In this document: positions 4,892 through 53,246 of the stretch, one piece after another | How the letters are laid out: each line of letters begins with the position of its first letter | Position numbering within the stretch: position 1 is the first letter of the stretch | Origin: Candidatus Crickella merdequi | Lineage (GTDB): Bacteria; Bacillota; Clostridia; Peptostreptococcales; Anaerovoracaceae | DNA length: 64,000 bases | Direction: 5' to 3' | Assembly: GCA_018064645.1 (NCBI GenBank) | Contig: JAGHUT010000064.1 | Span: forward strand, 3,965-67,964 | Translations under genes and position numbers: made by a program | The notes under the pieces: generated by a model | Seen by the model: only the letters and a program-made list of their open reading frames with translations | What the model was told of the DNA's origin: nothing | Databases searched by the model: none

Positions 4892-4894
4892 CAA

Positions 4895-6037: not shown

Positions 6038-6057
6038 AGATTGGAGTATAGAAGAAA

Positions 6058-7392: not shown

Positions 7393-7414
7393 CGAGAATT
7401 ATTTAAGGGAAGAA

Positions 7415-11669: not shown

Positions 11670-11679
11670 GGAGAGGGTT

Positions 11680-14103: not shown

Positions 14104-14189
14104 AACACTATATAATGAATGATGTGTGCAATAATTAGGTATATATAGACCAATCTACTTAAAAAGGGTTTTATTATTCCAAATTATAC

Positions 14190-15629: not shown

Positions 15630-15736
15630 GCCCAAATAAAACCCTTTTTTATTGTTTTAATGGCCTCAAATTTGCTCTAGTGTTTAAAAAGATGGTATAA
15701 TCAACTAAATATATCACTAAACAGAAAGAGGTTTTT

Positions 15737-17689: not shown

Positions 17690-17713
17690 GAAGAGCATGG
17701 AAAAAGAGAAAAA

Positions 17714-19486: not shown

Positions 19487-19501
19487 AAAAGGGTAAAGAA
19501 A

Positions 19502-25061: not shown

Positions 25062-25090
25062 TTGCCAAGAGGTTGACTCTGTGCTAACAT
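25062..25090 (+). promoter_or_regulatory. Candidate promoter of the nif-like/hyp/hyd operon
   Basis: -35 TTGCCA (25062-25067), 17-nt spacer, extended -10 TGcTAACAT (25082-25090). Located between the rpsR terminator and the leader. Confidence 0.4.
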
Positions 25091-25125
25091 CAGTTCATCT
25101 GAGATCGAAATATCGCATTGAGGTT

Positions 25126-25210
25126 GAAGATGCCAATAGAGATAAGAGAAACGACAGGGACAACTGTCGGTATTGCGGCATCTTCCAATTGGGAAGATGT
25201 TTTTTATTTT
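25126..25210 (+). promoter_or_regulatory. Riboswitch-like leader: closing helix mutually exclusive with an intrinsic terminator
   Basis: gaagatgcc (25126-25134) pairs with ggcatcttc (25177-25185) and encloses the hairpin gacag-ggacaa-ctgtc. The same 3' strand (catcttcc, 25179-25186) pairs with ggaagatg (25192-25199), followed by ttttttatttt (25200-25210). RBS and ATG follow at 25218-25231. Confidence 0.5.
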
Positions 25211-25228
25211 ACTGAGAAGGAGACAGAT

Positions 25229-25486
25229 ATGGAAGGTTACAGAGTGGCAATTCTCGGGATCATCATCGAAGAGATGGAGTCGGTTGCAGAAGTAAATGCG
25301 GTTCTTCACGAGTTCAACGAGTACATAATCGGAAGAATGGGAATTCCATACAAAACAAGAGGAATCAACGTCATCAGCATAGCAGTAGATGCTCCATGCG
25401 ATGCGATCAATACAATGGCAGGCAAGCTGGGCAAGCTTAGCGGAGTAAGTGCGAAGGCTGTTTATTCGAAGCTTTCACATGAATAG
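25229..25486 (+). CDS. TM1266-type small ACT-like protein (family annotated as putative iron-only hydrogenase system regulator)
   Basis: 85 aa from ATG 25229 (RBS gaaggag). MEGYRVAILGIIIEE..VNAVLHEFNEYIIGRMGIPY..INTMAGKLGKLSGVSAKAVYS matches my recollection of Thermotoga TM1266. The ORF-track start at 25118 would translate through the terminator hairpin. Confidence 0.6.
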   Translation: MEGYRVAILGIIIEEMESVAEVNAVLHEFNEYIIGRMGIPYKTRGINVISIAVDAPCDAINTMAGKLGKLSGVSAKAVYSKLSHE

Positions 25487-25501: not shown

Positions 25502-26248
25502 ATGAGAAAAATCGCAATTTACGGCAAGGGTGGTATCGGCAAATCGACAATATGTTCTAATGTCGCGGCTGCTCTTGCAGAAAAAGGGCTCAAAGTCATG
25601 CAGATAGGCTGCGATCCGAAGGCGGATTCTACTTATGCTCTCAGACACGGAGAGCCGCTGGCTACAGTCCTTGATACAGTGAGAGTCAAAGGCAGCAGTT
25701 TTGACCTTGATGAGGTGGTACATGAGGGCTATGCCGGAACCATCTGTGTGGAGGCAGGAGGCCCTGTGCCGGGCGTTGGATGTGCAGGCAGGGGAATTAT
25801 CACTGCCCTGGAGAAAATCGACGAGAAGGGCGTATATGACCGATACGAGCCGGATGTGATTATATATGATGTTCTTGGAGATGTAGTCTGCGGAGGCTTT
25901 TCCATGCCGATGAGAGGCGGCTACGCAGAAGAGGTGTACATTGTAACCTCTGGTGAGAACATGGCAATTTATGCAGCTGCAAATATTGCAGTGGCAATCG
26001 ATAATTTCAAGGGCAGAGGCTATGCAAAGCTTGGCGGTCTCATCCTCAACAGAAGAGATGTGAGGAACGAAGATGCCAAAGTGAAGGAGCTTTGCGAAGA
26101 CCTTAATACATCCCTTATTGGTGACATCCATAGGAGCGAAACAGTTCTGGACGCAGAGGAGAAGAAGCAGACTGTACTGGAAGCTTTTCCAGAAAGCAAT
26201 CAGGCAGAGGCGTACAGAACGCTTGCAGAGATAATCTGGAGCAGATAG
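25502..26248 (+). CDS. NifH-like (nitrogenase iron protein family) ATPase, copy 1
   Basis: [15 protein letters not shown] Walker A. Both [4Fe-4S] ligand contexts are present ([12 protein letters not shown] and [12 protein letters not shown]). ATG 25502 follows ggag. The ORF-track start at 25493 is TTG. Confidence 0.9.
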   Translation: MRKIAIYGKGGIGKSTICSNVAAALAEKGLKVMQIGCDPKADSTYALRHGEPLATVLDTVRVKGSSFDLDEVVHEGYAGTICVEAGGPVPGVGCAGRGIITALEKIDEKGVYDRYEPDVIIYDVLGDVVCGGFSMPMRGGYAEEVYIVTSGENMAIYAAANIAVAIDNFKGRGYAKLGGLILNRRDVRNEDAKVKELCEDLNTSLIGDIHRSETVLDAEEKKQTVLEAFPESNQAEAYRTLAEIIWSR

Positions 26249-26250
26249 AA

Positions 26251-28809
26251 GTGACAGAAAGAAATATTAGAACAAGTGAATATGTGACCTTAAGAGATGG
26301 AAGTTTTCCGCTTCCTTTCGCACAGCAGCTTGAATTCAGCTCGCCGGCAAGAGGAACCTTGAATATTGTTCATACAGGCAATCTTATACCGGAAAGCCAT
26401 GAGATTTTTGTCTGTGCCAAGGGTTGCCTGCGAGGAGTAGTCCTGACAGCGGCAGAGGCCGGCACCATGGGCAGATACTCAGCACTGGAGATCAAGGAGG
26501 AGAATATTCTCAACGGTGACATGGAGACAATGATGATTGAAGGTGTTTCGGACATCATCGCCAAGCTCCCTTACAGACCGAGAGCAATTCTCTTGTATAT
26601 AAGCTGTCAGCATTTCTTTATGGCATATGACAGGGAGATGGTTTTTGAGGTGCTGAAAGACAGGTTCAGGGATATTGAGTTCGCAGACTGTTACATGATT
26701 CCGACCCTTCGCAAAAGCGGCATAACCCCGGATCAGAAGATGCGGATTCAGATGTACAGCATGCTTAAGCCAGCTGTTACAGATGAGTCGCAGATTAATC
26801 TTATGGGAAGCAATCATGCCATTGTGGACAGCTGTGAAATATATACGCTTCTTGAAAAAAGAGGCATGAGTCTCACATCAATTAATGACTGTGAATCCTT
26901 CGATGAATATCTTGATCTAGCCAGGGGCCGGCTTAACATTATATATGAGCCAATAGCTCTTATGGCGGCTGAGGATATGGAGAAGCGTCTTGGAATACCG
27001 TATGTGTATCTGCCAAATGTCTACAGAGCAGATGATATTGCAGACAATTACAGGCTTCTTGGAGAGGTTCTCGGCGAGGTGCTTGATGAAGAAGAACTGG
27101 CAAGGTCCTGCGAAAAAGCGAAGCTTGCAGTCAGGGAAACACTCGCGATGGTCGGAGATTCTCCGATTGCAGTAGACTATACTTTTGGCCCTAGGCTTCT
27201 CAATCTGGCAAGATTCCTGGCAGAAGAAGGCTTTAATGTAACGGACCTCTTCGCAGACGGATTTTTCCCCGAAGAAGAGAAGGACTGGTGCTGGCTCAAG
27301 GAGAATAGACCGGATATTATACTTCATCCTACCAGCAGAGCAGCAATGCGTTACGAGAAAGATATCAATCCAGGAGCGCTGGCACTTGGACAGAAAGCGG
27401 CCTGCTTCATGGGAACAGATAATTTCGTTAATGTCGCAGAGTGCGGAGGCTTCTTCGGCTATGACGGAATAGTGCAGATAATGAAGCTTCTGCAGGAGGC
27501 CTGCAGAGTCAGTAAGGATAGAGAGGTAATTGTTCAGAAGAAGGGAACTAAAGTCAGATCTCTTCTTGATGAGGCAGACAGTCTCTGCTGCCGTGAACAG
27601 CCAGAGAAGAAACTCGAGTCGACAGGCAATAATTATACAGCTGGACTTGTACCAACTTATTCATCCGATGAATTCGGAATCTGTTCGGCCCTGTATGAAC
27701 TTGGCGGAATGGTGGTAATGCACGATGCATCTGGATGCAACTCAACATATACAACACATGATGAGCCACGATGGTACAACCAGGAGAGCATGATATACAT
27801 CTCAGCAATCTCCGAAATGGAAGCAATTATGGGAGATGATGAGAAGCTCATCAAAGACATCTGCGATGCGGCAGAAGCATTGAAGCCTGAGTTCATAGCA
27901 ATTGTAGGAGCCCCTATTCCATACATGATAGGAACAGATTTTGATGCAATTGCCAATATCCTGGAGGAAAAGCTGGGAATTCCATGCGTAGGTTTCGATG
28001 CCAACGGAATGCAGAACTACACAAAAGGCGTTGCCATGGCAACAAGAATGCTTGTGGAGAGATTCACCGAAACGCCTGTGGAAAAAACTGTGGAAAAAAC
28101 TGTGGAAATGTCACAGACGTTCACAATTAACCTCCTTGGAGCAACTCCTCTTGATTTCGCTCTCAATGGAACTGTTGCTTCAATAAAGGAGTGGGCGAAG
28201 GAACATCAAATGGCTGTAAAGTGCAGTTTTTCAATGGATTCAAGCCTTGAAGAGATTAAAGAAGCAGCTTCAGCCGATGCAAATCTTGTTCTTACGTACG
28301 GTGGTCTGGCGGCAGCTAAACTGATGAAAAGCAAATTCGGCATACCATATACCTGTGGAGTACCATGTGGAAAACTTGGTGATAATCTTGCAAAAGAACT
28401 TCGCGGCAGCCTCTTGTCGGCGAACACCGACGAAGCAAAAGGCGCTGAAAGAATCAAAGTAGCTGTAATCGGTGAAGAGATAACAAGCCTGTCACTGGCA
28501 AGAGCTCTCGAAATTGAATACAACTTCGATGCACGAGTTCTGAGCGCAGCAGATACAGATAAGGTAATACTAAGAGAGAAGGACTATGCAGCTGAATCAG
28601 AGGATGCAATTATAAGAATCCTTGCAGAGCTGCAGCCGGCACTGGTCATTGCAGATCCGTTCTACCAGGCCATAGTGCCAAAGGAAATGGATTTCTACCC
28701 AAGACCGCACGAGGCCTTCTCGGGAAGAATATATGACGGACAGAATCAGAATCTGATCAACTGCAGTCTGAGAGAGAAGCTGTCCGGTTTGGAGAAATAC
28801 GATGCTTAA
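26251..28809 (+). CDS. Fused nitrogenase-component-1-like protein: NifD-like N-half and NifK-like C-half in one 852-aa polypeptide
   Basis: The N-half (about aa 1-430) is paralogous to 29572-30858; the shared segment is ..[14 protein letters not shown].. versus ..AAEDIAKRLEIPSI... The C-half (about aa 465-852) is paralogous to 30855-31922; the shared segment is [19 protein letters not shown] versus CDAGGCTGNVCGFDEPRWF. GTG start 2 nt after the upstream stop. Confidence 0.8.
28076..28109 (+). repeat. In-frame 12-bp tandem repeat (ctgtggaaaaaa, about 2.8 copies) encoding [10 protein letters not shown]
   Basis: Read directly: cctgtggaaaaaactgtggaaaaaactgtggaaatg. Confidence 0.9.
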
Positions 28810-29554
28810 GATAGCAGTTTACGGTAAAGGCGGAATAGGTAAATCAACAACAACAGCAAATCTCGCAGCAGCTTTTGCCAGTCTTGGCAAGAAAGTAATT
28901 CAGATTGGCTGTGATCCAAAGGCAGATTCAACAATGAACCTCCTTCACGGAAGCCCTGTTCAGTCAGTAATGGACTACATGAGAATTAATGATGATGAGC
29001 CGACAGAACTCAGTGAAATCGTCGAGGAAGGTTATGGCGGAGTGGTATGCATCGAGACAGGTGGACCTACACCGGGACTGGGATGCGCCGGCCGAGGAAT
29101 TATAACAACTTTTTCGCTTCTCGAGGACCTGGAGCTCTTCGAAACATATGAACCAGATGTTGTTCTTTACGACGTCCTTGGAGATGTAGTTTGCGGAGGC
29201 TTCGCAGCTCCTATCAGAGAGGGCTATGCAGAGAAGATTCTCATTGTTACATCAGGTGAAAAAATGGCGCTCTACGCAGCCAACAATATCTGCTCTGCGG
29301 TAAAGAATTTTGAAGACCGGGGATACGCAACGGTTCGAGGCGTAGTTCTCAACAGAAGAGCAGTAGAAAGAGAAGAAGAGAAGGTACAGGCTTTTGCAGA
29401 AGAACACGGCCTTGAGATTCTCGCAGATATTCCAAGAAGCAATGACATCATTCACTATGAGGACCAGGGAAAAACAGTTATAGAGGGAGACATTAATCTT
29501 CCTGTAAGTCAGAAGTATATTGACCTGGCAAAGAGGCTTCTTGAAGAACAATAA
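28802..29554 (+). CDS. NifH-like ATPase, copy 2
   Basis: [28 protein letters not shown] and [19 protein letters not shown] motifs. The ATG overlaps the end of the upstream gene by 8 nt. Confidence 0.9.
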
Positions 29555-29571
29555 ATCGTAAAGGTAATTAA

Positions 29572-30858
29572 ATGGACAACAAACAAGCTTATTACATCAG
29601 TGCAAAGGATCTTGCGGCGCGCGGCCTGGACAATATTCCTGACCAGCTGCAGTCCTCAAAGCACCTAATATACAGTTCGCCGGCGACTTTGTCCTTCAAC
29701 TCTCCCGGAGCGCAGGGTTTTGGTGTCAAAAGAGCAGGACTTGCTGTTCCAGGATCTGTAATGCTTCTTGTAGCTCCCGGCTGCTGCGGGCGTAATACCA
29801 CTATGCTGGCAGAGCTTGGAGACTATGCAGACAGATTCTACTATCTGCTCCAGGATGATACAGATATCATTACAGGTCGCCATCTGAACAGAATCCCGGA
29901 GGCGGTCAGGGAAGTTGTAGAGTTTCATAACCCTAAGCCAAGCTGCGTAATGATATGCATAACCTGCGTAGATGCACTTCTTGGAACAGATATGGACAGA
30001 GTCTGCCGCAAAGCATCAGCCGTTGCGGGCGTTCCGGTTCTTCCCTGCTACATGTATGCACTTACAAGGGAAGGCAGAGTGCCACCAATGACAGCTGTAA
30101 GAAAAACAGTCTATGCACTTCTTGAGAAGCGGAAGAAGAAGTCAACAACAGTTAATATTCTTGGACAGTTTGCTCCATACATGGATAACTGCGAGCTGTA
30201 TGACATTCTTCACAATCTGGGAGTAAAGAAGATTAACGAAATATCAAGATGTGCCGATTTTGAGGAATACATGGGAATGGCAGAAGCGAATTTTAACCTC
30301 GTGCTTAACCCTGAGACAAGACTTGCTGCAGAGGATATAGCGAAGCGCCTGGAGATTCCGTCAATAGAGTTAACAAGGCAGTACAGACTCGACAAGATTC
30401 ATAAGCAGTACCAGCTTCTCGGCGGAGCCCTCGGTGTAAATATTGACGACAGCAGGTGGATGAAAGAGACGGAAGAGTATATTGACGGCTTCAGGGAGAG
30501 ACACCCAGACCTGGAATTTGCCATTGGAGAGTGTCTCAATGCAGACTCTTTTGAGCTCGCCCTTGCACTTATAGGCTACGGATACAAGGTCAACGAAATT
30601 TACGGAACAGTGTCCGGTGAGAATTTCCCTTACATCCGGCAGCTTGCAAAGGTCAGCCCTGAGACAAGAATATACACTAATCTGGAGCCTACAATGCTGT
30701 ACTACGACTGCAGCGAGTGTAAGGCGGATATAACAATTGGAAAGGATGCAGAGTACTATCATCCTGATGCGCCTAATGTGCCATGGAACAGAGAAGTTCA
30801 GCCATTTGGCTACGCAGGTCTCAGAACTCTGCTTGAGGAAATAGAGGAAGCTATATGA
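29572..30858 (+). CDS. NifD/NifE-like nitrogenase-component-1-type protein (stand-alone)
   Basis: 428 aa. Cys motifs LVAPGCCGR, ICITCVDALLGTDMD and VLPCYMY. By-eye similarity to A. vinelandii NifD around NLV....(K/R)(Y/L)(G/E)IP. Confidence 0.75.
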   Translation: MDNKQAYYISAKDLAARGLDNIPDQLQSSKHLIYSSPATLSFNSPGAQGFGVKRAGLAVPGSVMLLVAPGCCGRNTTMLAELGDYADRFYYLLQDDTDIITGRHLNRIPEAVREVVEFHNPKPSCVMICITCVDALLGTDMDRVCRKASAVAGVPVLPCYMYALTREGRVPPMTAVRKTVYALLEKRKKKSTTVNILGQFAPYMDNCELYDILHNLGVKKINEISRCADFEEYMGMAEANFNLVLNPETRLAAEDIAKRLEIPSIELTRQYRLDKIHKQYQLLGGALGVNIDDSRWMKETEEYIDGFRERHPDLEFAIGECLNADSFELALALIGYGYKVNEIYGTVSGENFPYIRQLAKVSPETRIYTNLEPTMLYYDCSECKADITIGKDAEYYHPDAPNVPWNREVQPFGYAGLRTLLEEIEEAI

Positions 30859-31922
30859 AAGGTTTACTCAAAGTACTGTCGCCATTCGCACCGGACCAGT
30901 CAGGCGCAGCGGCAGTATTCTACGACATGGGATGCATAACAGTAATATGCGATGCAGGAGGATGTACAGGTAATGTGTGCGGCTTCGATGAGCCAAGATG
31001 GTTCAGGAATGCCAAGCCGATTTTCAGTGCAGGTCTTCGTGACATGGATGCCATTCTCGGACGAGATGACAGACTTGTAGACAAGCTGAGACTGGTTGCA
31101 GAGAAGACAGATGCAGATTTCGCTGCGATTATCGGAACCCCGGTTCCAGCAGTAATCGCGACGGATTTTCGCGCACTGAAGAGACTGGCTGAGAAGCGCT
31201 GCGGAATGCCGGTCGTAACCTGCGAATGTACAGGAACAAGACTGTATGATATTGGAGAAGAAGAGGCATATATGCAGCTGGTAAAAACTTTTGCAGATAC
31301 TTCTGCAGAGGCTTCCGGCAAATCGGGAATACTGGGTGTTCTTGGTGTTACTCCCCTCAATATATCCAGCATTGATGGAGATGAACTGATCCGTCAGCAT
31401 TATAAGAGTCAGGGCTATGATGAGGTTTACTGCTACGGCATGGGTGCCGGCCTTGATGAACTGAAGCTGGCCGGCTGTGCAGAGAAGAACATTGTAATTG
31501 CTCCTTCGGGTCTTAAGGCTGCACGATATCTTGAGAAGAAATTCGGAACGCCATATGAGCTGCACTACCCGCTTATGCCTGTCAATGTTGCAGAAGCAAT
31601 CAAAGGCATTGAGAATGCCAGAGTGTGCATCATTCACCAGCAGATAGCTGCAGAGGCTGTAAGGCAGCAGCTAGAGCAGAAAGGTTGTGATGTGACAGTT
31701 GCATCTTTCTTCGAAATGAAGAAGGACCTTAGAAGAGCGCAGGATGTTGCTCTCGAAACAGAAGAAGATTATCAGAAGCTCATCGAAGAAGGCGGCTTCG
31801 ATTATGTAATTGCAGACCAGCTCTTCAGAAGAGCCGTAGCTGCAGACTGCTATAAAGAGTGGATACCTATGACACATTTCGCGGTATCCGGCAAGCTTGA
31901 GGAGGCTCAATGCGCACTGTAA
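30855..31922 (+). CDS. NifK/NifN-like nitrogenase-component-1-type protein (stand-alone)
   Basis: 355 aa with an ATGA overlap to the upstream gene. VICDAGGCTGNVCGFDEPRWF and IIGTPVPAVIATDF segments are paralogous to the C-half of 26251-28809. Confidence 0.7.
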   Translation: MKGLLKVLSPFAPDQSGAAAVFYDMGCITVICDAGGCTGNVCGFDEPRWFRNAKPIFSAGLRDMDAILGRDDRLVDKLRLVAEKTDADFAAIIGTPVPAVIATDFRALKRLAEKRCGMPVVTCECTGTRLYDIGEEEAYMQLVKTFADTSAEASGKSGILGVLGVTPLNISSIDGDELIRQHYKSQGYDEVYCYGMGAGLDELKLAGCAEKNIVIAPSGLKAARYLEKKFGTPYELHYPLMPVNVAEAIKGIENARVCIIHQQIAAEAVRQQLEQKGCDVTVASFFEMKKDLRRAQDVALETEEDYQKLIEEGGFDYVIADQLFRRAVAADCYKEWIPMTHFAVSGKLEEAQCAL

Positions 31923-34240
31923 GAATCTGTGTTTATGGAATAGTGCAGGGAGTAGGCTTCAGACCTTTTGTCAGCAGACTGGCAGACAGAATCGGCATTA
32001 AAGGAAGTGTGGCAAACAGAGGATCGTATGTGGAGATTTTTGCTGCCGGCGAAGAAGAACAGCTTGATTTATTCAAGTCGCTTCTCCGGCAGGAAGCACC
32101 TGAACGTTCGGCAATACTCAAGGTTACAGAGAGAACTGTTGAGCCTGGCGGATACGAAGACTTCCAGATAATAGAAAGTGAGCACGAAGAGGGAGATATC
32201 TTTGTTTCGCCTGATATTGCCACATGCCCAAAATGCAGAAGAGAGCTTTACGACCCTAACAACCGTCGATACATGCATCCTTTTATCAACTGTACGGCAT
32301 GCGGCCCAAGGCTTACCATTCTCGATGCAATGCCGTACGACCGTCAGAGAACAAGTATGAAGGCTTTTCCGATGTGTCCCGAATGTGAGTACGAATACAC
32401 GCATGCAGAGACGCGCAGGTATGATGCTCAGCCGGTATGCTGCAATGACTGCGGCCCGGAGGTGTATATTATCGGAAGTGAAATCAGCGGCAGAGCTGCC
32501 ATCACTTATGCGAGACAGGCGATCATTGATGGTAAGATTATTGCCATCAAGGGAATTGGCGGATTCCATCTCTGCTGCGATGCGACTAACGAAGAAGCAG
32601 TTGCAAGACTGAGAACTCTCAAGCGCAGACCGGCGAAGCCTTTTGCAGTAATGGCAAGAGACCTTGAGACTGTAGAGCGAGAATGCCAGCTTCCGGGGCA
32701 GAACATCAGGGATATTCTCGATGGACATCAGAAGCCGATAATTCTTCTTAAGCGTAAAAACGACAGCAGGCTGGCTCCATCAGTAGCTCCCGACAATCCA
32801 AAGATTGGAATGATGCTGCCTTACGCACCGGTACAGATGCTGCTTTTTGACTACAACGACGGCCTTGAGATGACAACAGACTGTTTCGTTATGACAAGCG
32901 GCAATGTCAGCGGAGCGCCAATCTGCAGAACAGACGAGGACGCAATTAAGGAGCTGTCTGGCTTCTGCGATATAATGCTTTCGCATAACAGAACCATAAG
33001 GCTTCGCGCTGATGATTCCGTAATGGATATCTACCGCGGTGAGCCATACATGATAAGGCGTTCAAGAGGCTATGCGCCACTGCCTGTGATGACAGAGCAG
33101 AATGTCAGAGGAAGCGTGCTTGCTGTAGGAGGAGAGCTTAAGAACACCTTCTGCATCGGCAAGGATCAGCTTCTCTACGAGTCGCCATATGTTGGTGATA
33201 TGGAGGATCTGCGCACAGTGCAGGCTCTTGAGGAATCGATAAAAAGAATGGCGGAGCTGCTCGAGACGTCACCGACAATTGTGGCGTGCGATCTTCATCC
33301 GAAGTACAATACTGGTTTTGTGGCTGAGAGACAGGGGCTTCCTGTTATGAAACTTCAGCATCATTATGCTCATATTCTGTCATGTATGGCGGAGAACGAT
33401 TACAGTGATAGAGTAATAGGACTTTCTCTTGATGGAACTGGCTACGGAACAGACGGAACTATCTGGGGCGGAGAACTGCTCTCCTGCGACCTTGATGGCT
33501 TCGAAAGAATTGGCTGTATAGAAGCTTTCGACCAGGTCGGCGGTGATGCTTCAGCAAAAGAAGGCTGGAGAATAGCGGCTTCAATGATCAACTCCATATA
33601 CGGAGAGGAAGCTTCGGAGGTAGTGACGAAGCTCGGCCTTTGCGATGAGAACGCCAGAGCTCTTATTGCAAGAATGGCTGAAAGAGGTATAAACACCGTA
33701 AAGTCCACAAGCGCGGGAAGACTCTTTGACGCTGTCAGCGCAATTCTGGGTGTTCGAAAGAGCTCAAGCTTCGAAGGCGAAGCTGCAACAACTCTTATGT
33801 TCAGAGCCCAGGCCTTCGCAGAGACAGCTGAAGCACTGCCGGAGGTACCTTCGTTCTGCGGAATAGCCCTTGAGGATTTCTGCAATATAAGAACGACGGA
33901 GCTGGTTCGATACCTTATCGAAGAGAAACTCAAAATTCAGGATGAAGAGGGCAATCTGAGCATAGAAGAACAGGGAAGACTAGCCTATGTTTTTCATGAA
34001 GCCTTTGCCGAGATGTGCGCAGAAGCAGCAATCTGGGCATGCAGCAGAGAAGAAATAGCGACTGCAGCGCTCTCCGGAGGAGTTTTCCAGAACACACTTC
34101 TCCTGGAAGGAGTTGAATCGCGACTTGAGAATAATGGAATCAAAGTATTGAGGCATCATATGATTCCGCCTAATGATGGAGGCATTGCCCTCGGTCAGGC
34201 GGCAGCAGCGATGCATAAGATAAACAGGGAGGACAAGTGA
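31910..34240 (+). CDS. hypF: Carbamoyltransferase HypF
   Basis: 776 aa. Acylphosphatase domain (VYGIVQGVGFRPFV). Two Zn-finger pairs (CPKCRRELYDPNNRRYMHPFINCTACGPR; CPECEYEYTHAETRRYDAQPVCCNDCGP). YrdC-like and Kae1-like C-terminal domains. RBS gaggagg. Confidence 0.92.
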   Translation: MRTVRICVYGIVQGVGFRPFVSRLADRIGIKGSVANRGSYVEIFAAGEEEQLDLFKSLLRQEAPERSAILKVTERTVEPGGYEDFQIIESEHEEGDIFVSPDIATCPKCRRELYDPNNRRYMHPFINCTACGPRLTILDAMPYDRQRTSMKAFPMCPECEYEYTHAETRRYDAQPVCCNDCGPEVYIIGSEISGRAAITYARQAIIDGKIIAIKGIGGFHLCCDATNEEAVARLRTLKRRPAKPFAVMARDLETVERECQLPGQNIRDILDGHQKPIILLKRKNDSRLAPSVAPDNPKIGMMLPYAPVQMLLFDYNDGLEMTTDCFVMTSGNVSGAPICRTDEDAIKELSGFCDIMLSHNRTIRLRADDSVMDIYRGEPYMIRRSRGYAPLPVMTEQNVRGSVLAVGGELKNTFCIGKDQLLYESPYVGDMEDLRTVQALEESIKRMAELLETSPTIVACDLHPKYNTGFVAERQGLPVMKLQHHYAHILSCMAENDYSDRVIGLSLDGTGYGTDGTIWGGELLSCDLDGFERIGCIEAFDQVGGDASAKEGWRIAASMINSIYGEEASEVVTKLGLCDENARALIARMAERGINTVKSTSAGRLFDAVSAILGVRKSSSFEGEAATTLMFRAQAFAETAEALPEVPSFCGIALEDFCNIRTTELVRYLIEEKLKIQDEEGNLSIEEQGRLAYVFHEAFAEMCAEAAIWACSREEIATAALSGGVFQNTLLLEGVESRLENNGIKVLRHHMIPPNDGGIALGQAAAAMHKINREDK

Positions 34241-34241
34241 T

Positions 34242-34448
34242 ATGTGCGTAGGATTAGCGGCTAAAGTAGTAGGAATCAAGGATGGCGTTGCTGTTGTTGA
34301 TGCATCAGGCGCAAAGAGAGAGGTGGCTGCAGAGCTCATCGAGGAGCTTGAGCCAGGCGATTTCGTAATGGTTCATGCAGGCATTGCCATCGCAAAGATT
34401 ACTGCAGATGATACAGAAGAGACAGATGAACTGATGGAGATGCTTTAA
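34242..34448 (+). CDS. hypC: HypC/HybG/HupF-family hydrogenase maturation chaperone
   Basis: 68 aa with the N-terminal MCVG motif (essential Cys2) and the typical DFVMVHAGIAI segment. Confidence 0.85.
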   Translation: MCVGLAAKVVGIKDGVAVVDASGAKREVAAELIEELEPGDFVMVHAGIAIAKITADDTEETDELMEML

Positions 34449-35491
34449 TGGAAGAGAAGAAACTTACAGCACGTGAGATCATCGAGAGCTACGATGGTCC
34501 GAAGCTTAGAATAATGGAGGTGTGCGGAACGCATACGCATGAGATTTTTCGCCTTGGAATCAGAAGTCTGCTCCCAGAGAATGTTGAGCTGATTTCCGGA
34601 CCGGGCTGCCCTGTTTGCGTAACGCCTGTAGGCTTCATTGATATGGCCCTTCAGCTGGCCCTCGAGAAGGAGTGCGTAATCTGTACTTTTGGAGACCTTA
34701 TCAGAGTTCCGGGTTCAGAGATGAGTCTTGCTGACGCGAGAGCTAAGGGTGCAGTTGTAAAAATCGTATATACTGCTACAGACGCTCTCGACTATGCGAA
34801 GGAGAATCCTGATAAGCAGGTGGTTTTCCTGTCTGTCGGTTTCGAGACAACAACTCCTGGAAGCTGTCTGGCAGTTAAGAAGGCTAAGGAAGAAGGGGTT
34901 CAGAACTTCTCGATTCTTACTGCCAACAAGACAATGCCTAATGCATATCAGGCACTTAAGGGAAGCGCAGATGCGTTCCTCTATCCAGGACATGTTAACG
35001 CAATCACAGGAGAGGATGACTGCCGCAAGCTGGCCGAAGAAGGAGTATCAGGCGTAATCGCCGGTTTTACCGCCAAGGAACTTCTGACAGCCCTTGCAGT
35101 GACAATAAGAAAATGCCAGCAGGGCGAGCCTTTCTTCGTTAACTGCTATCCAAGGGTAGTTACTGAAAAGGGAAACATCCCTTCAAAGAAAATTATCGAA
35201 GAGATTATGGAGCCATGCGATTCAATCTGGAGAGGCCTTGGAAACATTTCGATGTCAGGTCTGAAGCTTAGAGAAGAGTACGCCGCGTTCGATGCACAGC
35301 GGAAGTTCGACATTCCTGAGACAGAGGGAACACCTAATCCTGGATGCCGCTGCGGTGAGGTTCTTCAGGGCAAGTGCAAGCCTGCAGATTGCCCTCTGTT
35401 CGGCAAGGTATGCACACCGCTTCATCCGGTAGGTGCATGTATGGTATCAAATGAAGGTTCCTGCTCTGCGTACTATCAGTACCAGATGTAG
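34448..35491 (+). CDS. hypD: Hydrogenase maturation Fe-S protein HypD
   Basis: CGTHTHEI, GPGCPVCVTP, GFETT and PGHVNAITG motifs, plus the C-terminal Cys cluster CRCGEVLQGKCKPADCPLFGKVCTPLHPVGACMVSNEGSC. Confidence 0.92.
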   Translation: MEEKKLTAREIIESYDGPKLRIMEVCGTHTHEIFRLGIRSLLPENVELISGPGCPVCVTPVGFIDMALQLALEKECVICTFGDLIRVPGSEMSLADARAKGAVVKIVYTATDALDYAKENPDKQVVFLSVGFETTTPGSCLAVKKAKEEGVQNFSILTANKTMPNAYQALKGSADAFLYPGHVNAITGEDDCRKLAEEGVSGVIAGFTAKELLTALAVTIRKCQQGEPFFVNCYPRVVTEKGNIPSKKIIEEIMEPCDSIWRGLGNISMSGLKLREEYAAFDAQRKFDIPETEGTPNPGCRCGEVLQGKCKPADCPLFGKVCTPLHPVGACMVSNEGSCSAYYQYQM

Positions 35492-35511: not shown

Positions 35512-36516
35512 ATGAGTGAATATGTTAAGCTGGCCCACGGTGCCGGCGGCAAGCAGACATCAGAGCTGATTGAAAAAGTCTTCAAGGCGCATTTTGCTAA
35601 TCCTGAGTTTACTGCTGACGATGCAGCAGTACTGAATGTTGGAGATGGAAGAATCGCTATGTCGACAGATGGTTTTATCGTGTCGCCATTCGAGTTCCCG
35701 GGCGGCAACATCGGCAAACTTTCTATTTGCGGAACGGTAAATGACCTGGCATGCATGGGAGCACAGCCTCTTTATATGACCTGTGCTTTCGTAATAGAGG
35801 AAGGTTTTCCTCTTGAGAAGCTGGAGATGATTGCAGCTTCAATGGAGAAGACCGCTGCAGAGGTTGGTGTTAAGATTGTTGCCGGCGATACTAAGGTTGC
35901 AGGCAAGGGACAGGTAGACAATGTCTTCATAACAACAACAGGCGTAGGCAGGCTGACTGAGGGCTTTGCTACTTCAGGAGCTTTTGCCAAGCCTGGTGAC
36001 AAAATCATCGTTACAGGTGATGTAGGCCGTCATGGCTGCACAATCCTTCTTGAGAGAGAAGATCTGGGAATTGAGGCAGATATCAAGAGTGACTGTGCGC
36101 CTCTCTGGAACACAGTTAAAGCGATGATGGATGCAACTTCAGACATCCACGTAATAAGAGATGCTACAAGAGGCGGTGTTGGTACTGTCCTTTATGAAAT
36201 TGCGGCTGAGAGCAATGTTGGTGTAAGGCTTGAAGCTACACAGGTTCCAGTTGATCCAGCTGTTGCAGGTGTATGTGGAATGCTGGGCCTTGACCCGCTC
36301 TATCTTGCCAACGAGGGAACAATGGTTGTTATTGCTCCAGCAGAGTCTGCAGACAAGGTGCTCGAGGCACTTCGCGGCGACAAGTATGGACAGAAGGCGG
36401 CTGTTATTGGCGAGATTACAGATGTAATGCCGGGAAGCGTAGTAGTAAGAACAGAGATTGGAACAGAGACACTTCTTCCACAGCCAGGAGGAGAGCTCCT
36501 TCCAAGAATCTGCTAA
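35512..36516 (+). CDS. hypE: Carbamoyl dehydratase HypE
   Basis: 334 aa with a PurM-like fold, an N-terminal LAHGAGGK segment and the invariant C-terminal PRIC motif. Confidence 0.92.
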   Translation: MSEYVKLAHGAGGKQTSELIEKVFKAHFANPEFTADDAAVLNVGDGRIAMSTDGFIVSPFEFPGGNIGKLSICGTVNDLACMGAQPLYMTCAFVIEEGFPLEKLEMIAASMEKTAAEVGVKIVAGDTKVAGKGQVDNVFITTTGVGRLTEGFATSGAFAKPGDKIIVTGDVGRHGCTILLEREDLGIEADIKSDCAPLWNTVKAMMDATSDIHVIRDATRGGVGTVLYEIAAESNVGVRLEATQVPVDPAVAGVCGMLGLDPLYLANEGTMVVIAPAESADKVLEALRGDKYGQKAAVIGEITDVMPGSVVVRTEIGTETLLPQPGGELLPRIC

Positions 36517-36526
36517 GGTAGACATA

Positions 36527-37582
36527 ATGACTGATTTATATAAGCTTGTTGACAAGCTGGAAGAGGAGAAAGAACTTTCCCTTGAGGAATGGACAAGGCT
36601 CATCGAAGGGCAGTCCTCTGAGATAAGTGAATATGTTTTTTCCAAGGCACGCAAGGCACGCGAACCCTTTTACGGCCACGAAGTGTATGTGCGAGGTCTT
36701 ATCGAGATAAGTAACATCTGCAGAAATGACTGCATCTACTGCGGTATTCGCTGCAGCAATGTCAAAGTGAATCGATACAGACTGACGAAGGAGGAGATCC
36801 TTTCCTGCTGCAGATCCGGCTGGGAAATGGGCTTCAGGACTTTTGTCATGCAGGGCGGCGAGGATCCATATTACACCGACGAGGTGCTTTGCGATATTAT
36901 CGCTGCGATTCGCGAGGAGTTCCCGGAGTGTGCAATAACCCTTTCTGTTGGAGAGCGCTCTAAAGAGAGCTATCGCAAACTTAAGGAGGCGGGTGCAGAG
37001 CGTTACCTTCTGAGGCACGAGACGGCAAATGAAGAGCACTATAGAATGCTGCATCCAGAGAACCTGAGTCTTGCTGTCCGCAAAGAGTGCCTTTTCAATC
37101 TGCGCGAGCTGGGCTACCAGGTGGGAGCAGGGTTCATGGTTGGTGCACCATATCAGACGGCGAGGCATCTTGCGGAGGATATGATTTTCCTTAAAGAGCT
37201 TAATCCTGCTATGGTTGGAATCGGACCATTCATTCCGCATCATGATACGCCTTTTGCAGATATGAAGGCAGGCACCCTTGAGCAGACAATATACCTGCTC
37301 GGGCTCATAAGACTGATGCTTCCAAAAGTTCTTCTTCCAGCGACAACAGCTCTTGGAACAAGTGATCCTCTGGGCCGCGAGAAGGGAATGGAGGCAGGTG
37401 CCAATGTAGTAATGCCGAATCTTTCACCGACAGAAGTCCGCAAGGACTACCTGCTGTACGACAACAAAATCTGCGTGAACGAAGAGGCCGCCGAGAACCT
37501 CAGGAGTCTGAAGGCTCGTATGGAGGCTATCGGATACATGGTTGTATGCGACCGCGGCGATTCAAAGAATATGGAGAACTAA
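36527..37582 (+). CDS. hydE: [FeFe]-hydrogenase H-cluster radical-SAM maturase HydE
   Basis: Radical-SAM CRNDCIYCGIR motif in a BioB-like fold, with the HydE-typical segments MQGGEDPYY and AMVGIGPFIPHHDTPF. ATG 36527 avoids overlap with hypE; the ORF-track start is 36458. Confidence 0.85.
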   Translation: MTDLYKLVDKLEEEKELSLEEWTRLIEGQSSEISEYVFSKARKAREPFYGHEVYVRGLIEISNICRNDCIYCGIRCSNVKVNRYRLTKEEILSCCRSGWEMGFRTFVMQGGEDPYYTDEVLCDIIAAIREEFPECAITLSVGERSKESYRKLKEAGAERYLLRHETANEEHYRMLHPENLSLAVRKECLFNLRELGYQVGAGFMVGAPYQTARHLAEDMIFLKELNPAMVGIGPFIPHHDTPFADMKAGTLEQTIYLLGLIRLMLPKVLLPATTALGTSDPLGREKGMEAGANVVMPNLSPTEVRKDYLLYDNKICVNEEAAENLRSLKARMEAIGYMVVCDRGDSKNMEN

Positions 37583-38785
37583 ATGAGTATGAACAACACG
37601 CCAAGTGGCGAAAGAATACATATCGGATTATTCGGCAAGCGCAACGCCGGCAAATCGAGCCTCGTCAATGCTCTGACAGGACAGAGCCTTGCCATCGTTT
37701 CGGATGTGCTGGGAACAACAACGGATCCTGTGCTCAAGGCAATGGAGCTTCTGCCGCTCGGTCCGGTTGTAATGATAGATACACCGGGCCTCGATGACGA
37801 AGGTGAGCTGGGGGAGCTGCGTATTCGTAAGGCGTATCAGATGCTGAACAAGTCGGATATCGCGCTTCTCGTAGTTGATGCTGCCTGCGGAATGACTGCT
37901 GAGGATAATGCAATTCTTGAGAGAATCCTCGGCAAAAATCTTCCTTATGTCGTAGTATTCAACAAGTGCGATGCTATCGATGAAGAAAGACGCTTCGCAT
38001 TGTCGGAAGAGCTGGGTGAGAAGAAACATATTTTTGTAAGCGCAGCCGACAGAGAGGGAATATATGAACTTAAAGAACTCATAGGTCACCTGATCCCTTC
38101 CGAATCGGAGAGGGTTCTGATTAGAGATATAATTGACCCATCCGACATAATCGTTCTTGTTGTACCTATTGATAAGGCGGCGCCTAAGGGAAGGCTTATC
38201 CTGCCGCAGCAGATGGTTATCAGAGATATTCTTGATGCAGATGCTGTTGCAGTAGTTGCCAAGGAGGATGAGCTGTCATCTGTACTTGCCAGAATCGGCG
38301 AAAAACCGAAACTGGTAGTAACAGATAGTCAGGTTTTCGGCAGAGTGTCGAAGGATACTCCAGCGGATATCTATCTTACGTCTTTTTCCATCCTGATGGC
38401 TCGTTATAAAGGCGACCTGGAGCTGGTTGTTGAGGGAGCACATCAGCTTGACCAGCTTGACGATGGGGACACAATTCTCATCGCAGAGGGATGCACTCAT
38501 CACAGACAGTGCGGCGACATCGGAACAGAGAAACTGCCGGCATGGATTCTTAAGCATAGCGGCAAGAATGTAAAGTTCGAGTTCGTAAGCGGAACGGAAT
38601 TCCCTGACGATCTTAGTAAATACAGACTGATCGTTCACTGCGGCGCATGCACCCTCAACGAGAAGGAGATGCAGTATCGCCAGAAGTGCGCCGTTGACGC
38701 AGGAATTCCAATTACAAATTATGGAACAGCAATCGCACATATGAATGGAATTCTCAAGAGAAGTCTGGAGATTTTCTGCAAATAG
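37583..38785 (+). CDS. hydF: [FeFe]-hydrogenase maturation GTPase/scaffold HydF
   Basis: GTPase P-loop GKRNAGKSSLVNALTG and DTPG. C-terminal cluster motif EGCTHH...VHCGACTLN (CxHx(n)HCxxC). Confidence 0.9.
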   Translation: MSMNNTPSGERIHIGLFGKRNAGKSSLVNALTGQSLAIVSDVLGTTTDPVLKAMELLPLGPVVMIDTPGLDDEGELGELRIRKAYQMLNKSDIALLVVDAACGMTAEDNAILERILGKNLPYVVVFNKCDAIDEERRFALSEELGEKKHIFVSAADREGIYELKELIGHLIPSESERVLIRDIIDPSDIIVLVVPIDKAAPKGRLILPQQMVIRDILDADAVAVVAKEDELSSVLARIGEKPKLVVTDSQVFGRVSKDTPADIYLTSFSILMARYKGDLELVVEGAHQLDQLDDGDTILIAEGCTHHRQCGDIGTEKLPAWILKHSGKNVKFEFVSGTEFPDDLSKYRLIVHCGACTLNEKEMQYRQKCAVDAGIPITNYGTAIAHMNGILKRSLEIFCK

Positions 38786-39526: not shown

Positions 39527-39546
39527 GATACAAATCCTTTCTTAAT

Positions 39547-44486: not shown

Positions 44487-44996
44487 ATGATTAAGCAGAT
44501 TCCGGAGATGAAGAACAGAATGATTAAAGGCTGCGTTGTCGACTGCGGCGGCGCTTGTGGTGACTGCACCCGTACAGGAGAGCCGCTTGACCTGAAGGGA
44601 ACACTCTACTTCGCTACGGGCGAGATAGATGCATCCGAAATCGAAGCGGCAGACAGAATCTACGTTATCGTTTCCGATGGAATAGATGAGGATACAGAAG
44701 AGGCATTTGCTGCAATAAGGGAGAAATTCGGCGACAAGGCATACTGCTTCGCCGCAGGCGAATACCCTCTTGACAAAAGCCGTCTTTTCTCAAGAATGGC
44801 AGAACTCAAGGACGAGGAAAACATTTTTGTCAGACCAATTGCCTGTGCCGGCTTCGAGGGGCTGCGCCACGTGGTGAATAGCGGAACTTGTCCGGCACCA
44901 GACGATAATTCAGCAATATACGTCTGGGCCTTGAATGGAGAAGAACCGTCATCGGAAGAGTTCCTTACGTATTATGAGATGGGAAAACGCAGCTAG
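44487..44996 (+). CDS. Hypothetical Cys-rich acidic protein
   Basis: 169 aa with N-terminal GCVVDCGGACGDC. I recognise no family. The 3' end overlaps the convergent hydrogenase gene by 32 nt. Confidence 0.5.
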   Translation: MIKQIPEMKNRMIKGCVVDCGGACGDCTRTGEPLDLKGTLYFATGEIDASEIEAADRIYVIVSDGIDEDTEEAFAAIREKFGDKAYCFAAGEYPLDKSRLFSRMAELKDEENIFVRPIACAGFEGLRHVVNSGTCPAPDDNSAIYVWALNGEEPSSEEFLTYYEMGKRS

Positions 44997-46407
44997 CCAC
45001 ATTCTCTTTAATTGAGGTATGGGATGCTTCTGCAGCATGTTCATCTGTTCTGTTTGCGTTTTTGTCGATTTTGCGCAGACAGCCGGCTCCGCGAATGCAG
45101 CCGCCGTCACATGCCATGCCTTCAATGTAATTCTCGTTTAGAACACCCTTGCTCGCCTTGAGCAGGGTTGTTTTTATTTGTGAAAGACCTGTTGTTGATA
45201 TTGCGTTAACTTCAAAATCACTTTCTCTTTCCTCGAGAGATCTCTGAAGAGCGCCGATAACACCGCCGGCATGGGCAAAGCGTCGGCCATATCCTGTAGC
45301 TTCGTCAAGAGGTGTCTCCTCAAGGTTCTGAACAACAATGTCTCTGCTGTCAAAAAGAGCAGCAAGTTCTTCAAAGGTCAGCACTGAATCAACGAAAGGC
45401 GCTGCCTTGTCCAGTTTGATCTCAGCCTTCTTGGCAGTACAAGGTCCAATGAAGACAACCTTCGCATCGGGATTATTCTGCTTAATAAGCTTTCCGGTGA
45501 CAACCATCGGTGAAGGCATCTCGGACATTTTGTCTGCAAGATTTGGATGCTTCTGCTCAACATAGGTGACAAAAGCAGGGCAGCAGGAGCTGAGAAGTTC
45601 ACCTTTTTCCTCAATCTCGATTGATTCTTCGTATGCTACGATGTCGGCTCCGTAAGCAGCCTCGTGAACCTCTGCGAAACCCAGCTGATGAAGTGCAGTG
45701 ATTGTCTGTCCGTAACTTGCTGGAGGACACTGGGATGCAATGGCCGGAGCAAGAACGGCAACGACCGGATATTTACTGTTGTTCTCGCTGTCAAGAATCA
45801 TTCTGATAACATCAGAAATAAAAGACTTATCTACAGCCGCGCCGAAAGGACATCTTGAAACGCATGCACCGCAGTGAGTGCATTTTTCCTCTGTGATAAC
45901 AGCCTCACCAGTCTTTGCCATGTGAATAGCGCCTGGAACACAGGCAGTCTCGCATGGTCTCTTGAAATTATGAATAGCAGTGTAAGGGCAGGCCTTAGCA
46001 CACTGGCCGCACTCTACACATTTGCTCTTATCAATCTTCGCACGATTCTCAGGCGTGTATGTAATGGCGCCGAGCCTGCAAGCACCTTCACAGGCGTGAG
46101 CCAGGCAGCCACGGCACAGATCTGTAACAACATGACCAGCTTCAGGACACTCATCGCAGATGAGCGAAATAACTTCAATTACATTGTTGTTGGCACGATT
46201 GCCGCCAAGAGCCAGCTTAATTCTTTCAGCCAGCTTAGCCCTGTCCTTATAGATGCAGCAGCTTCTCAGAGGGGCATCCTCTTTGATAATTACTGAAGCA
46301 ATCTCATCGAATACAGTAAAAACCTGAGTGCCTTCCCACAGACATTTTGCAACCTCACGAAGAACCTCATTCTTTACGACCTGTACATTAGAATCGAAAC
46401 GTCTCAT
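44965..46407 (-). CDS. [FeFe] hydrogenase-family protein, monomeric group-B-like (two ferredoxin-type 4Fe-4S motifs + H-domain)
   Basis: 480 aa. CVECGQCAKACP and CTHCGACVSRCP motifs. H-cluster motifs SSCCPAF (L1), IGPCTAKKAE (L2) and EGMACDGGCIRGAG (L3, lacking the group-A GGGQP tail). Confidence 0.8.
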   Translation of the reverse strand: MRRFDSNVQVVKNEVLREVAKCLWEGTQVFTVFDEIASVIIKEDAPLRSCCIYKDRAKLAERIKLALGGNRANNNVIEVISLICDECPEAGHVVTDLCRGCLAHACEGACRLGAITYTPENRAKIDKSKCVECGQCAKACPYTAIHNFKRPCETACVPGAIHMAKTGEAVITEEKCTHCGACVSRCPFGAAVDKSFISDVIRMILDSENNSKYPVVAVLAPAIASQCPPASYGQTITALHQLGFAEVHEAAYGADIVAYEESIEIEEKGELLSSCCPAFVTYVEQKHPNLADKMSEMPSPMVVTGKLIKQNNPDAKVVFIGPCTAKKAEIKLDKAAPFVDSVLTFEELAALFDSRDIVVQNLEETPLDEATGYGRRFAHAGGVIGALQRSLEERESDFEVNAISTTGLSQIKTTLLKASKGVLNENYIEGMACDGGCIRGAGCLRKIDKNANRTDEHAAEASHTSIKENVASCVFPSHNT

Positions 46408-53091: not shown

Positions 53092-53112
53092 CGTTGTGCA
53101 GTTTAATAAAAA

Positions 53113-53246
53113 GAGGGGAGCTTGCGATTGCAGGCTGAGAGTAAGTTCAGACTTAGACCCTTTAACCTGATTTGGATAATGCCAACGTAGGGACAATAGT
53201 AAGCGTAGAACAAGCGGATGTCCCTGGAGGGATGTCCGCTTTTTAC
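53113..53246 (+). promoter_or_regulatory. TPP (THI-box) riboswitch with terminator
   Basis: GGGGAGCUUGCGAUUGCAGGCUGAGAGUAAGUUCAGACUUAGACCCUUUAACCUGAUUUGGAUAAUGCCAACGUAGGGA, then the terminator gcggatgtccc-tgga-gggatgtccgc-ttttt (53213-53245). Confidence 0.9.

Follow-up and report, generated by a model that had tools for sequence, protein, structure and literature searches.

Teaching presents [FeFe]-hydrogenase maturation as the work of one universal trio, HydE, HydF and HydG: the essential maturase HydG, a radical S-adenosylmethionine (SAM) tyrosine lyase, makes an Fe(CO)2(CN)(Cys) synthon, and HydE and HydF assemble the 2Fe subcluster. The Fe-CN/CO unit is made by HypF, HypC, HypD and HypE. 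The present study concerns a 64,000-nt stretch of Candidatus Crickella merdequi (assembly GCA_018064645.1, contig JAGHUT010000064.1, positions 3,965 to 67,964; hereafter the window), in which two paralogous sets of nitrogenase-like genes, H1-D1-K1 (set 1) and H2-D2-K2 (set 2), share an operon with HypFCDE, HydE and HydF. The operon points to an undescribed way of building a hydrogenase active site.

The closest described sequences are the NifHEN-like proteins of Dos Santos et al. 2012 (BMC Genomics 13:162; PMC3464626), who noted two closely linked copies next to hydrogenase maturation genes, for example in Coprococcus catus GD/7 as well as Dorea longicatena DSM 13814, with a pair of conserved Cys in the D/E-like subunit, a single one in the K/N-like subunit, and fused nifH-nifE variants; they also recorded Nif-like genes beside ATP-binding cassette (ABC) transporters. 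The hydrogenase connection was given one descriptive and one speculative sentence there, the latter suggesting the role considered here. The window system is the same thing, fitting the Firmicute NifHEN-like clade in its linked copies, its alpha88/alpha154 and single beta Cys, and its hydrogenase maturation neighbours. Full-text literature searching found no study of this system past that remark. The division into a Hyp-linked and a Hyd-linked set, the HydG slot, an ABC-importer variant and any selection or structural analysis are absent from the 2012 account, and there appears to be no earlier report of the equivalence with the HydG slot or of the way the sets divide between Hyp and Hyd; the family has been noticed, never characterised.

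Maturation in organisms without a full HydE/F/G set is an open question (PMC11216029, PMC9431212). A 2022 genome-mining survey of Clostridium acetogens found HydE and HydF in every species studied, did not identify a canonical HydG in five of eight species, and reported HypCDEF without HypAB in five (PMC9431212). That survey is silent on Nif-like genes, and relatives of its acetogens carry the Nif-like cluster described below.

Two nitrogenase-like sets in a hydrogenase maturation operon

The two H-D-K sets make up only half of the operon that holds them, a 13.7 kb run of 12 translationally coupled genes (TM1266-H1-D1K1-H2-D2-K2-HypF-HypC-HypD-HypE-HydE-HydF) in which adjacent genes overlap or are separated by gaps of 0–20 nt (Table 1). 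A first-pass annotation had placed two complete H-D-K sets here, and the open reading frames (ORFs) are indeed found, with PF00142 in H1 and H2 and PF00148 in D1K1, D2 and K2; the D and K proteins of set 1 are fused into a single polypeptide. All of the motifs quoted in that annotation are also there (AAED..KRL.IP, HDASGC......HDEPRWY or CDAGGC......FDEPRWF, and G.P.P..I.TDF). Families were called with Pfam and with NCBIfam equivalog cut-offs, and every Hyp and Hyd protein of the window scores above its equivalog cut-off and keeps its catalytic residues. HypC Cys2, the C-terminal Cys of HypE and the CGxHxH and CPVC motifs of HypD are 96–100% conserved, and the CxxxCxxC of HydE and Cx[H]...HCxxC of HydF 100%. 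The operon contains no hypA, hypB, hydG or [NiFe] large-subunit gene. The CWB2 wall proteins of the window, and homologues in Anaerovoracaceae and Lachnospiraceae, mark the organism as one of the Clostridia. An [FeFe]-hydrogenase gene with the H-cluster motifs SSCCP, GPCTAKK and MACDGGCIRG lies 6 kb downstream on the opposite strand and is the likely client of the maturation genes; such a gene is also found near the cluster in two of the retrieved loci (L003, L084).

The reading favoured here, with a confidence that falls a little short of even, is that the two sets are ATP-driven, nitrogenase-like maturation modules for Fe-CO/CN hydrogenase cofactors, set 2 acting with HypFCDE and set 1 in the place of HydG, and that they do not serve nitrogen fixation. 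It is based on gene content, synteny, slot equivalence, the orthology of HydE and HydF, conservation and a NifEN-like fold.

For comparison, 80 species-level loci were retrieved by means of a K1 signature (HD[AP]SGCNST / Y.THDEPRW) from at least 598 matching species genomes; homologues of K1 form 483 representative clusters at E <= 1e-30. Gene maps were drawn by placing the window proteins onto six-frame ORFs, and adjacency fractions were restricted to loci that extend 8 kb or more to either side (37 Nif-like loci, and 32 of the HydG controls described below). Two modules emerge. Module B, H2-D2-K2-HypF-HypC-HypD-HypE, shows K2 directly followed by HypF in 46 loci, set 2 being almost always immediately upstream of HypFCDE. 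Module A, TM1266-(HydE)-H1-D1-K1-(HydF)(-AspA-like lyase), unites set 1 with TM1266, HydE, HydF and AspA; HydE precedes H1 in 22 loci and K1 precedes HydF in 15. In 5 Nif-type loci the gene after HydF encodes an AspA-like lyase, and a link of AspA to hydF in canonical hyd operons is on record (PMC11736057). Among the 37 well-flanked loci, module B is adjacent in 32, and TM1266 is present in 27 and HydE or HydF in 22. No [NiFe] large-subunit motif, and neither hypA nor hypB, was found in any locus.

Either module may come first, and some pairs are divergent; B precedes A in Blautia obeum and Clostridium scatologenes (L091), and in the latter the Nif-like sets are not beside HydE or HydF. The two sets are not always found together: module B stands alone in one Clostridium genome (L089) and 18 loci have set 1 without set 2 nearby. 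Around set 1, two architectures that do not mix were seen in the 80 loci, one with set 2 and HypFCDE (53 loci) and one with a Peripla_BP_2/FecCD importer (18 loci), whose binding-protein and permease genes never stand alongside the Hyp/set-2 module; the importer may bring in iron, or a compound for which other genomes rely on module B. In 11 loci (L009, L063, L065, L066, L068, L070, L072 at 1310–2404, L073, L075, L077, L081) the ABC ATPase carries a C-terminal TM1266-like (ACT/NikR-like) domain and lies beside the FecCD permease, the Peripla_BP_2 protein and HydE-H1-D1-K1-HydF.

Gene fusions join members of one set only (H1~D1, D1~K1, D2~K2), which is natural evidence for cognate complexes. 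The proposal that each set has its own ATPase holds in the window and fails as a general rule: at least 13 loci with both D/K sets carry a single NifH-like gene, always of the H2 type (L003, L015, L021, L024, L026, L028, L029, L031, L033, L051, L058, L071, L083). A dedicated ATPase is thus not obligatory, and the pattern suggests that H2 may be able to serve both complexes.

Set 1 stands in the position of HydG

A HydG query, checked beforehand (TIGR03955, 691 bits), was run against 92 Nif-like loci and the 64-kb window, 1.70 Mb in all, and gave weak matches to HydE genes alone. No HydG-like ORF was found in the window or in these 92 loci, a search of neighbourhoods only and not of whole genomes. 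A scan for CxxxCxxC in 86 loci returned no radical-SAM ORF besides HydE and one HemN-like protein, and no NifB. As controls, 80 metagenome loci anchored on HydG were collected. These have the order TM1266-HydE-HydG-HydF(-AspA) or TM1266-AspA-HydF-HydE-HydG; in the 32 that are well flanked, HydG is adjacent to HydF in 23, to TM1266 in 22 and to HydE in 17. Nif-like or Hyp genes occur in none of the 80 controls.

Both of these canonical gene orders recur in the Nif-type loci, with H1-D1-K1 standing where HydG stands. Set 1 thus holds the same position as HydG, beside or between HydE and HydF and behind TM1266, and the two are mutually exclusive across the 80 control and 92 Nif-like loci. The HydE and HydF proteins of the two operon types are ordinary orthologues, identity between types being about the same as within types, and the nearest neighbour of the window HydF comes from a HydG-type operon. 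HydG and set 1 have zero homology, so that the resemblance is positional and a functional likeness can only be presumed from it; as judged from these comparisons, the relation of H1-D1-K1 to HydG is one of positional, non-orthologous displacement. The equivalence of the slot is strong circumstantial evidence, not proof, that set 1 does the work of HydG or at least feeds HydE. A strict version, in which HydG has been replaced everywhere, is ruled out by C. scatologenes, which has both sets and a reported HydG.

An ancient duplication under selection

The H proteins of the two sets are 52% identical (BLASTP, E 5e-93). D2 is related to the N-terminal half of D1-K1 (25% identity across 310 aa; E 6e-31) and K2 to its C-terminal half (29% identity across 370 aa; E 2e-49), while the cross pairs are weak (D2 against the K half, E 0.005; K2 against the D half, E 0.001), about 26–46 orders of magnitude below the cognate pairs. 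Across the 80 species-level loci, H, D and K each fall into two clades, one holding set 1 only and the other set 2 only: the nearest neighbour of each protein always lies within its own set, and a neighbour-joining bipartition splits the sets exactly.

The ratio of nonsynonymous to synonymous substitution (dN/dS) is 0.02–0.10 for all six genes, measured against an 80%-identical relative (L087) for which dS is close to saturation, and the cluster cysteines of both sets are 94–100% conserved. In the same 29 genomes the median identity of set 2 and set 1, respectively, is 0.76 and 0.61 for H, 0.59 and 0.44 for D, and 0.50 and 0.46 for K; H2 is the most conserved of the six genes, and set 2 as a whole is conserved at about the level of HypD, HypE and HypF. 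Both sets are ancient, maintained and under strong purifying selection. The first-pass annotation had proposed clear paralogues derived from an old duplication kept under selection, and pairwise identities, separate clades and dN/dS all agree with this; neither relaxed selection nor loss of cluster ligands, the signs of decay that it had named, is seen in either set.

Ligand pattern and fold

H1 (Cys97, Cys133) and H2 (Cys95, Cys131) have 100% conserved cluster cysteines and intact P-loop and switch regions, and are NifH-type Fe proteins at the superfamily level. They score about 250 bits against solved NifH/Fe protein structures and fall below the nifH equivalog cut-off of 394 (H1 330, H2 311). 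The D and K proteins are far from all solved sequences, the top match (E ~1e-9) being to NifE.

Ligand residues were mapped with hhalign by aligning the families to Azotobacter vinelandii NifD and NifK (sequences 100% identical to the PDB chains, which provide the residue numbering) in local mode with a low mact; global mode against the single NifD and NifK sequences gave shifted or meaningless alignments and was not used. With one sequence alone as the template, hhalign gives low probabilities, and the residue mapping therefore rests on the HG.xGC and (S/T)xC...GDD anchors. D1 keeps Cys55 (alpha88) and Cys119 (alpha154) and has Cys59 as a further conserved cysteine; D2 keeps Cys72 (alpha88) and Cys132 (alpha154), with Cys71, Cys129 and Cys145 in addition. 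Equivalents of alpha62, alpha275 and alpha442 are missing from both. The position of NifD Cys275 is a gap in D1 and Asn in D2, and that of His442 is Val (Val393 in D1). K1 keeps Cys496 at beta70, a placement backed by a HMMER alignment to the NifN half of 9i0g, and has no extra conserved cysteine; K2 keeps Cys37 at beta70 and adds Cys32 and Cys42. Both lack beta95 and beta153. Each set has accordingly kept three of the six P-cluster cysteine equivalents (alpha88, alpha154, beta70) and not alpha62, beta95 or beta153. The beta Cys, matched by Dos Santos et al. to beta-Cys95, is placed here at beta-Cys70/NifN-Cys44. Of the [4Fe-4S] ligands of NifEN, NifE Cys62, NifE Cys124 and NifN Cys44 each have a counterpart here and NifE Cys37 has none, and lineage-specific extra cysteines adjoin the kept ones.

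By this ligand pattern, neither set would be expected to bind an M- or L-cluster in the manner of NifD or NifE. The first-pass annotation had likened the arrangement to NifHDK plus NifEN, one catalytic complex and one assembly scaffold. That analogy has support in part. The sets are indeed two and paralogous; the division into catalyst and scaffold is not supported, given the lack of Cys275 and His442 equivalents in both D1 and D2. Gene neighbourhoods suggest another division, with set 2 tied to HypFCDE and set 1 to TM1266/HydE/HydF. For a putative cluster at the D1K1 interface, four cysteines (Cys55, Cys59, Cys119, Cys496) are available, flanked by invariant His, Asp and Glu (HDASGC...THDE), an arrangement of three plus one Cys that recalls the three Cys and one Asp of DPOR. 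D2K2 would provide a richer site, with 7–8 Cys.

An AlphaFold2 model of D1K1 (predicted local distance difference test 84, predicted template modelling score 0.84) has as its best structural match the natural NifE-N fusion 9i0g from Geobacter metallireducens (E 2.5e-28), followed by other NifEN proteins, VnfK/NifK, NifD and BchNB. NifEN is likewise a D/K-type heteromer that works with a NifH-like partner and has an Fe-S site at the interface, a site that is putative in D1K1; NifEN itself acts in maturation, not catalysis. The differences are an identity of only 13–19%, the absence from the window D proteins of equivalents of NifE Cys250 (NifD Cys275) and Cys37 (NifD Cys62), and a NifB that is not in the Nif-like loci. 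Mo-nitrogenase shares the hallmarks of NifH, all of which are borne by H1 and H2, and PF00148 in D and K; it differs from the window sets, which have three of six P-cluster cysteines, no Cys275 or His442, and no nifB, nifE or nifN genes with them. DPOR (BchLNB), COR (BchXYZ) and CfbCD, reductases in which one [4Fe-4S] cluster sits at the interface, likewise consist of an ATPase dimer and a D/K-type core with reduced ligands and no M-cluster, yet no tetrapyrrole genes are near the window sets, and CfbD is homomeric. The methylthio-alkane reductase MarBHDK (PDB 9d9u/9fmg), a non-nitrogenase with separate D and K, is the best match among solved sequences for K2 (E 1e-7) and for H1, but is distant, and no sulfur-salvage genes are near the window sets.

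Equivalog scores are below the NCBIfam cut-offs throughout: nifD 57 and 23 bits (cut-off 654), nifK 15 (427), nifE 103 (505), BchL 195–213 (345), BchX 160–201 (331), BchB 34–56 (490), CfbC 304–324 (402) and CfbD 17–34 (268). As far as sequence can tell, none of the defining features tested marks the D/K proteins out as nitrogenase, NifEN, DPOR, COR or CfbCD, the [4Fe-4S] ligands of NifEN being kept in part.

A possible maturation pathway and its alternatives

If the sets are maturation modules, each H dimer would pass low-potential electrons, at the expense of ATP, to an Fe-S cluster at its own D/K interface. HypE and HypF would supply cyanide from carbamoyl phosphate, and HypCD together with D2K2 would build or reduce an Fe-CN/CO species. 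After a CO-forming or ligand-remodelling step, which the scheme requires, an Fe(CO)x(CN) synthon corresponding to what HydG makes would pass from D1K1 to HydE, and HydE and HydF would complete the 2Fe subcluster for the nearby [FeFe]-hydrogenase. The system would then be a tyrosine-independent and HydG-independent route to the H-cluster. That such a route is widespread in gut and rumen anaerobes, with cyanide from HypEF and two nitrogenase-like complexes making or remodelling Fe-CO/CN for HydE/HydF, possibly with CO drawn from CO2, is conceivable, though on the doubtful side.

Several observations weigh against the maturation reading. The Fe(CN)2(CO) made by the Hyp proteins differs in its CO:CN ratio from Fe(CO)2(CN), on which HydE acts, so that an unproven remodelling or CO-generating step is needed. 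The failure to find HydG concerns gene neighbourhoods, as said above. Eighteen loci pair set 1 with a FecBCD-type importer, and neither set 2 nor Hyp genes are close by; set 1 may thus do without the Hyp link, unless those genomes carry module B in another place. Motif-complete HydG has been described in C. scatologenes and C. drakei (PMC9431212), and in the former its presence with both sets means that these and HydG can coexist. Finally, a [NiFe]-hydrogenase is listed in every acetogen species surveyed (PMC9431212), so the HypFCDE genes of the Clostridium acetogens are not orphans, and an 'orphan Hyp' interpretation is ruled out for that group.

Some of these facts would suit an accessory role, in which a canonical HydG is encoded elsewhere in the genome and the sets supply low-potential electrons, Fe/S or CO from CO2, set 1 to HydE/HydF and set 2 to the HypCD scaffold. 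Paralogues as a rule carry out one chemistry on behalf of several clients, the two sets go with separate maturation machineries, the modules can stand apart, and we know of no established source for the CO ligand of the anaerobic Hyp pathway; C. scatologenes, with both sets and a reported HydG (PMC9431212), is a further point in its favour. This role, the main rival, is nevertheless somewhat unlikely, given that HydG is linked to HydE, HydF or TM1266 in 53–72% of control loci and does not appear in any of 92 Nif-like loci containing those genes, and that the Nif triad sits exactly in the HydG slot in both gene orders. The division of labour proposed in the first-pass annotation, a catalytic enzyme and its assembly scaffold, could be extended so that the Hyp and Hyd proteins build a novel Fe-CO/CN cofactor for the nitrogenase-like protein itself and not for a hydrogenase. 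The lack of Cys275/His442 equivalents in the D proteins, sets that are not strictly co-located, HydE and HydF that are ordinary orthologues of those serving HydA, and an [FeFe]-hydrogenase gene near the cluster in the window, L003 and L084 make this clearly unlikely, even with two paralogous sets as in NifDK/NifEN, a fold nearest to NifEN, a Cys site richer in D2K2 than in D1K1, and no hypA, hypB or [NiFe] large subunit in any locus.

It is highly unlikely that the sets are unrelated to hydrogenases and, like DPOR, COR and CfbCD, reduce an imported metal chelate or tetrapyrrole-like substrate, their location reflecting shared metal-dependent regulation. To our knowledge, the substrates reduced by every other characterised nitrogenase-like enzyme outside Nif are organic, and the 18 loci with set 1 beside a Peripla_BP_2/FecCD importer and an ATPase bearing a TM1266 domain would fit such a function, as would the Nif-like genes near ABC transporters (PMC3464626); but the adjacency to HydE/HydF/AspA and HypFCDE is too regular across phyla for mere co-regulation, set 1 is equivalent in position to HydG, and scores for BchL/N/B, BchX/Y and CfbC/D are far under the NCBIfam cut-offs. 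Scarcely credible is the idea that one set is a decaying duplicate without a function of its own. Set 1 does evolve faster in H and D over the 29 genomes, and H1 is missing from at least 13 loci, but this reading is contradicted by the selection and conservation data: low dN/dS in six genes, both clades kept across 80 species, and an invariant motif, about 15 residues long, which at least 598 species retain along with the cluster cysteines.

In this operon, nitrogenase-like ATPase/scaffold sets stand at the junction of [NiFe] and [FeFe] maturation, one of them in the slot of HydG, in hundreds of species. Among the carriers are major H2 producers of gut and rumen (Blautia obeum, Ruminococcus albus, Lachnospiraceae), as well as industrial acetogens. 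If the maturation reading is true, the sets are a functional class new to the nitrogenase superfamily, and they open a new route to organometallic Fe-CO/CN cofactors, one in which [NiFe] and [FeFe] maturation are merged through nitrogenase-family proteins; the anaerobic source of the CO ligand could emerge from it, and the operon, as a compact set of genes, would serve to produce hydrogenases in heterologous hosts. The HydG slot and the Hyp/Hyd split make a long-standing question testable by experiment, for which existing in vitro maturation assays suffice.

Gene table and other features of the window

Table 1. Features of the nitrogenase-like/hydrogenase maturation operon and the nearby hydrogenase gene (window coordinates; bit scores with equivalog cut-off in parentheses)
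Feature	Coordinates	Strand	Evidence and remarks
Promoter-like site and ~135-nt leader with terminator-like hairpin (25177-25201 + T-run)	25062..25228	+	upstream of first operon gene
Small TM1266-like protein (ACT/NikR-like), putative regulator of the [FeFe]-hydrogenase system	25229..25486	+	PF21699 E 1.5e-30; TIGR03959 110 bits (61)
H1, NifH-like ATPase/[4Fe-4S] protein, set 1	25502..26248	+	PF00142 E 1e-88; P-loop GKGGIGKS
Fused D1-K1, 852 aa	26251..28809	+	two PF00148 stretches
D1 domain, residues ~1-445 of D1-K1	26251..27585	+	invariant Cys55, Cys59, Cys119, His41, His50, His121
K1 domain, residues ~456-852 of D1-K1	27616..28809	+	invariant signature; Cys496 aligns with NifK Cys70/NifN Cys44
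H2, NifH-like ATPase/[4Fe-4S] protein, set 2	28802..29554	+	PF00142 E 7e-93; 8-nt overlap with end of D1K1
D2, NifD/E-like subunit, set 2	29572..30858	+	PF00148 E 2.5e-28; conserved Cys71, Cys72, Cys129, Cys132, Cys145
K2, NifK/N-like subunit, set 2	30855..31922	+	PF00148 E 7e-20; Cys37 and Cys42 100%, Cys32 80% conserved
HypF carbamoyltransferase	31910..34240	+	TIGR00143 738 bits (466)
HypC chaperone, N-terminal Cys2	34242..34448	+	TIGR00074 61 bits (48)
HypD	34448..35491	+	TIGR00075 410 bits (193)
HypE, C-terminal PRIC	35512..36516	+	TIGR02124 426 bits (252)
HydE radical-SAM H-cluster maturase	36527..37582	+	TIGR03956 574 bits (255)
HydF GTPase scaffold, H-cluster maturation	37583..38785	+	TIGR03918 567 bits (326)
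[FeFe]-hydrogenase catalytic subunit, 480 aa, outside operon	44965..46407	-	PF02906 200 bits and ferredoxin-type domains

Three start codons in Table 1 differ from those assigned mechanically. TM1266 probably begins at ATG 25229 and not at TTG 25118, and HydE probably at ATG 36527 and not at TTG 36458, as indicated in both cases by homologues (82–93 aa for TM1266) and a ribosome-binding site; the start of H1 is probably ATG 25502 rather than TTG 25493.

The operon has a leader of about 135 nt (25095–25228). A promoter-like TTGCCA-17-TAACAT goes with it, as do the conserved block TCATCTGAGATCGAAATAT.GCATTGAGGTTGAAGATG and, directly before the ribosome-binding site, a terminator-like hairpin with T-run. 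The predicted RNA fold of the leader has z = -2.8, and no Rfam family matches it at the gathering score. Sought in all loci, the leader motif was present only in the two closest relatives, L087 and L088. The heptamer GAAGATG occurs twice in it, so that an alternative antiterminator/terminator pairing is possible, and the leader is a candidate attenuator or riboswitch.

The sole HypB-superfamily gene of the window encodes a CobW/HypB/UreG-family metallochaperone GTPase (PF02492; 62088–63233, +); it is 23 kb from the operon and not beside the hyp genes. Directly after HydF, on the opposite strand, are a TenA gene and an energy-coupling factor (ECF)-type transporter (38852–42363, -). A thiamine pyrophosphate riboswitch (67 bits; 53104–53210, +) lies upstream of a thiamine salvage/biosynthesis cluster with hydroxyethylthiazole kinase and phosphomethylpyrimidine kinase (53351–56159, +). 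At the other end of the window, a polysaccharide biosynthesis cluster (445–8530) is followed by a run of large secreted CWB2-repeat proteins (8700–20800, +), among them two papain-like cysteine proteases and one GH25 lysozyme, which together make up a typical surface-layer locus of Clostridia.

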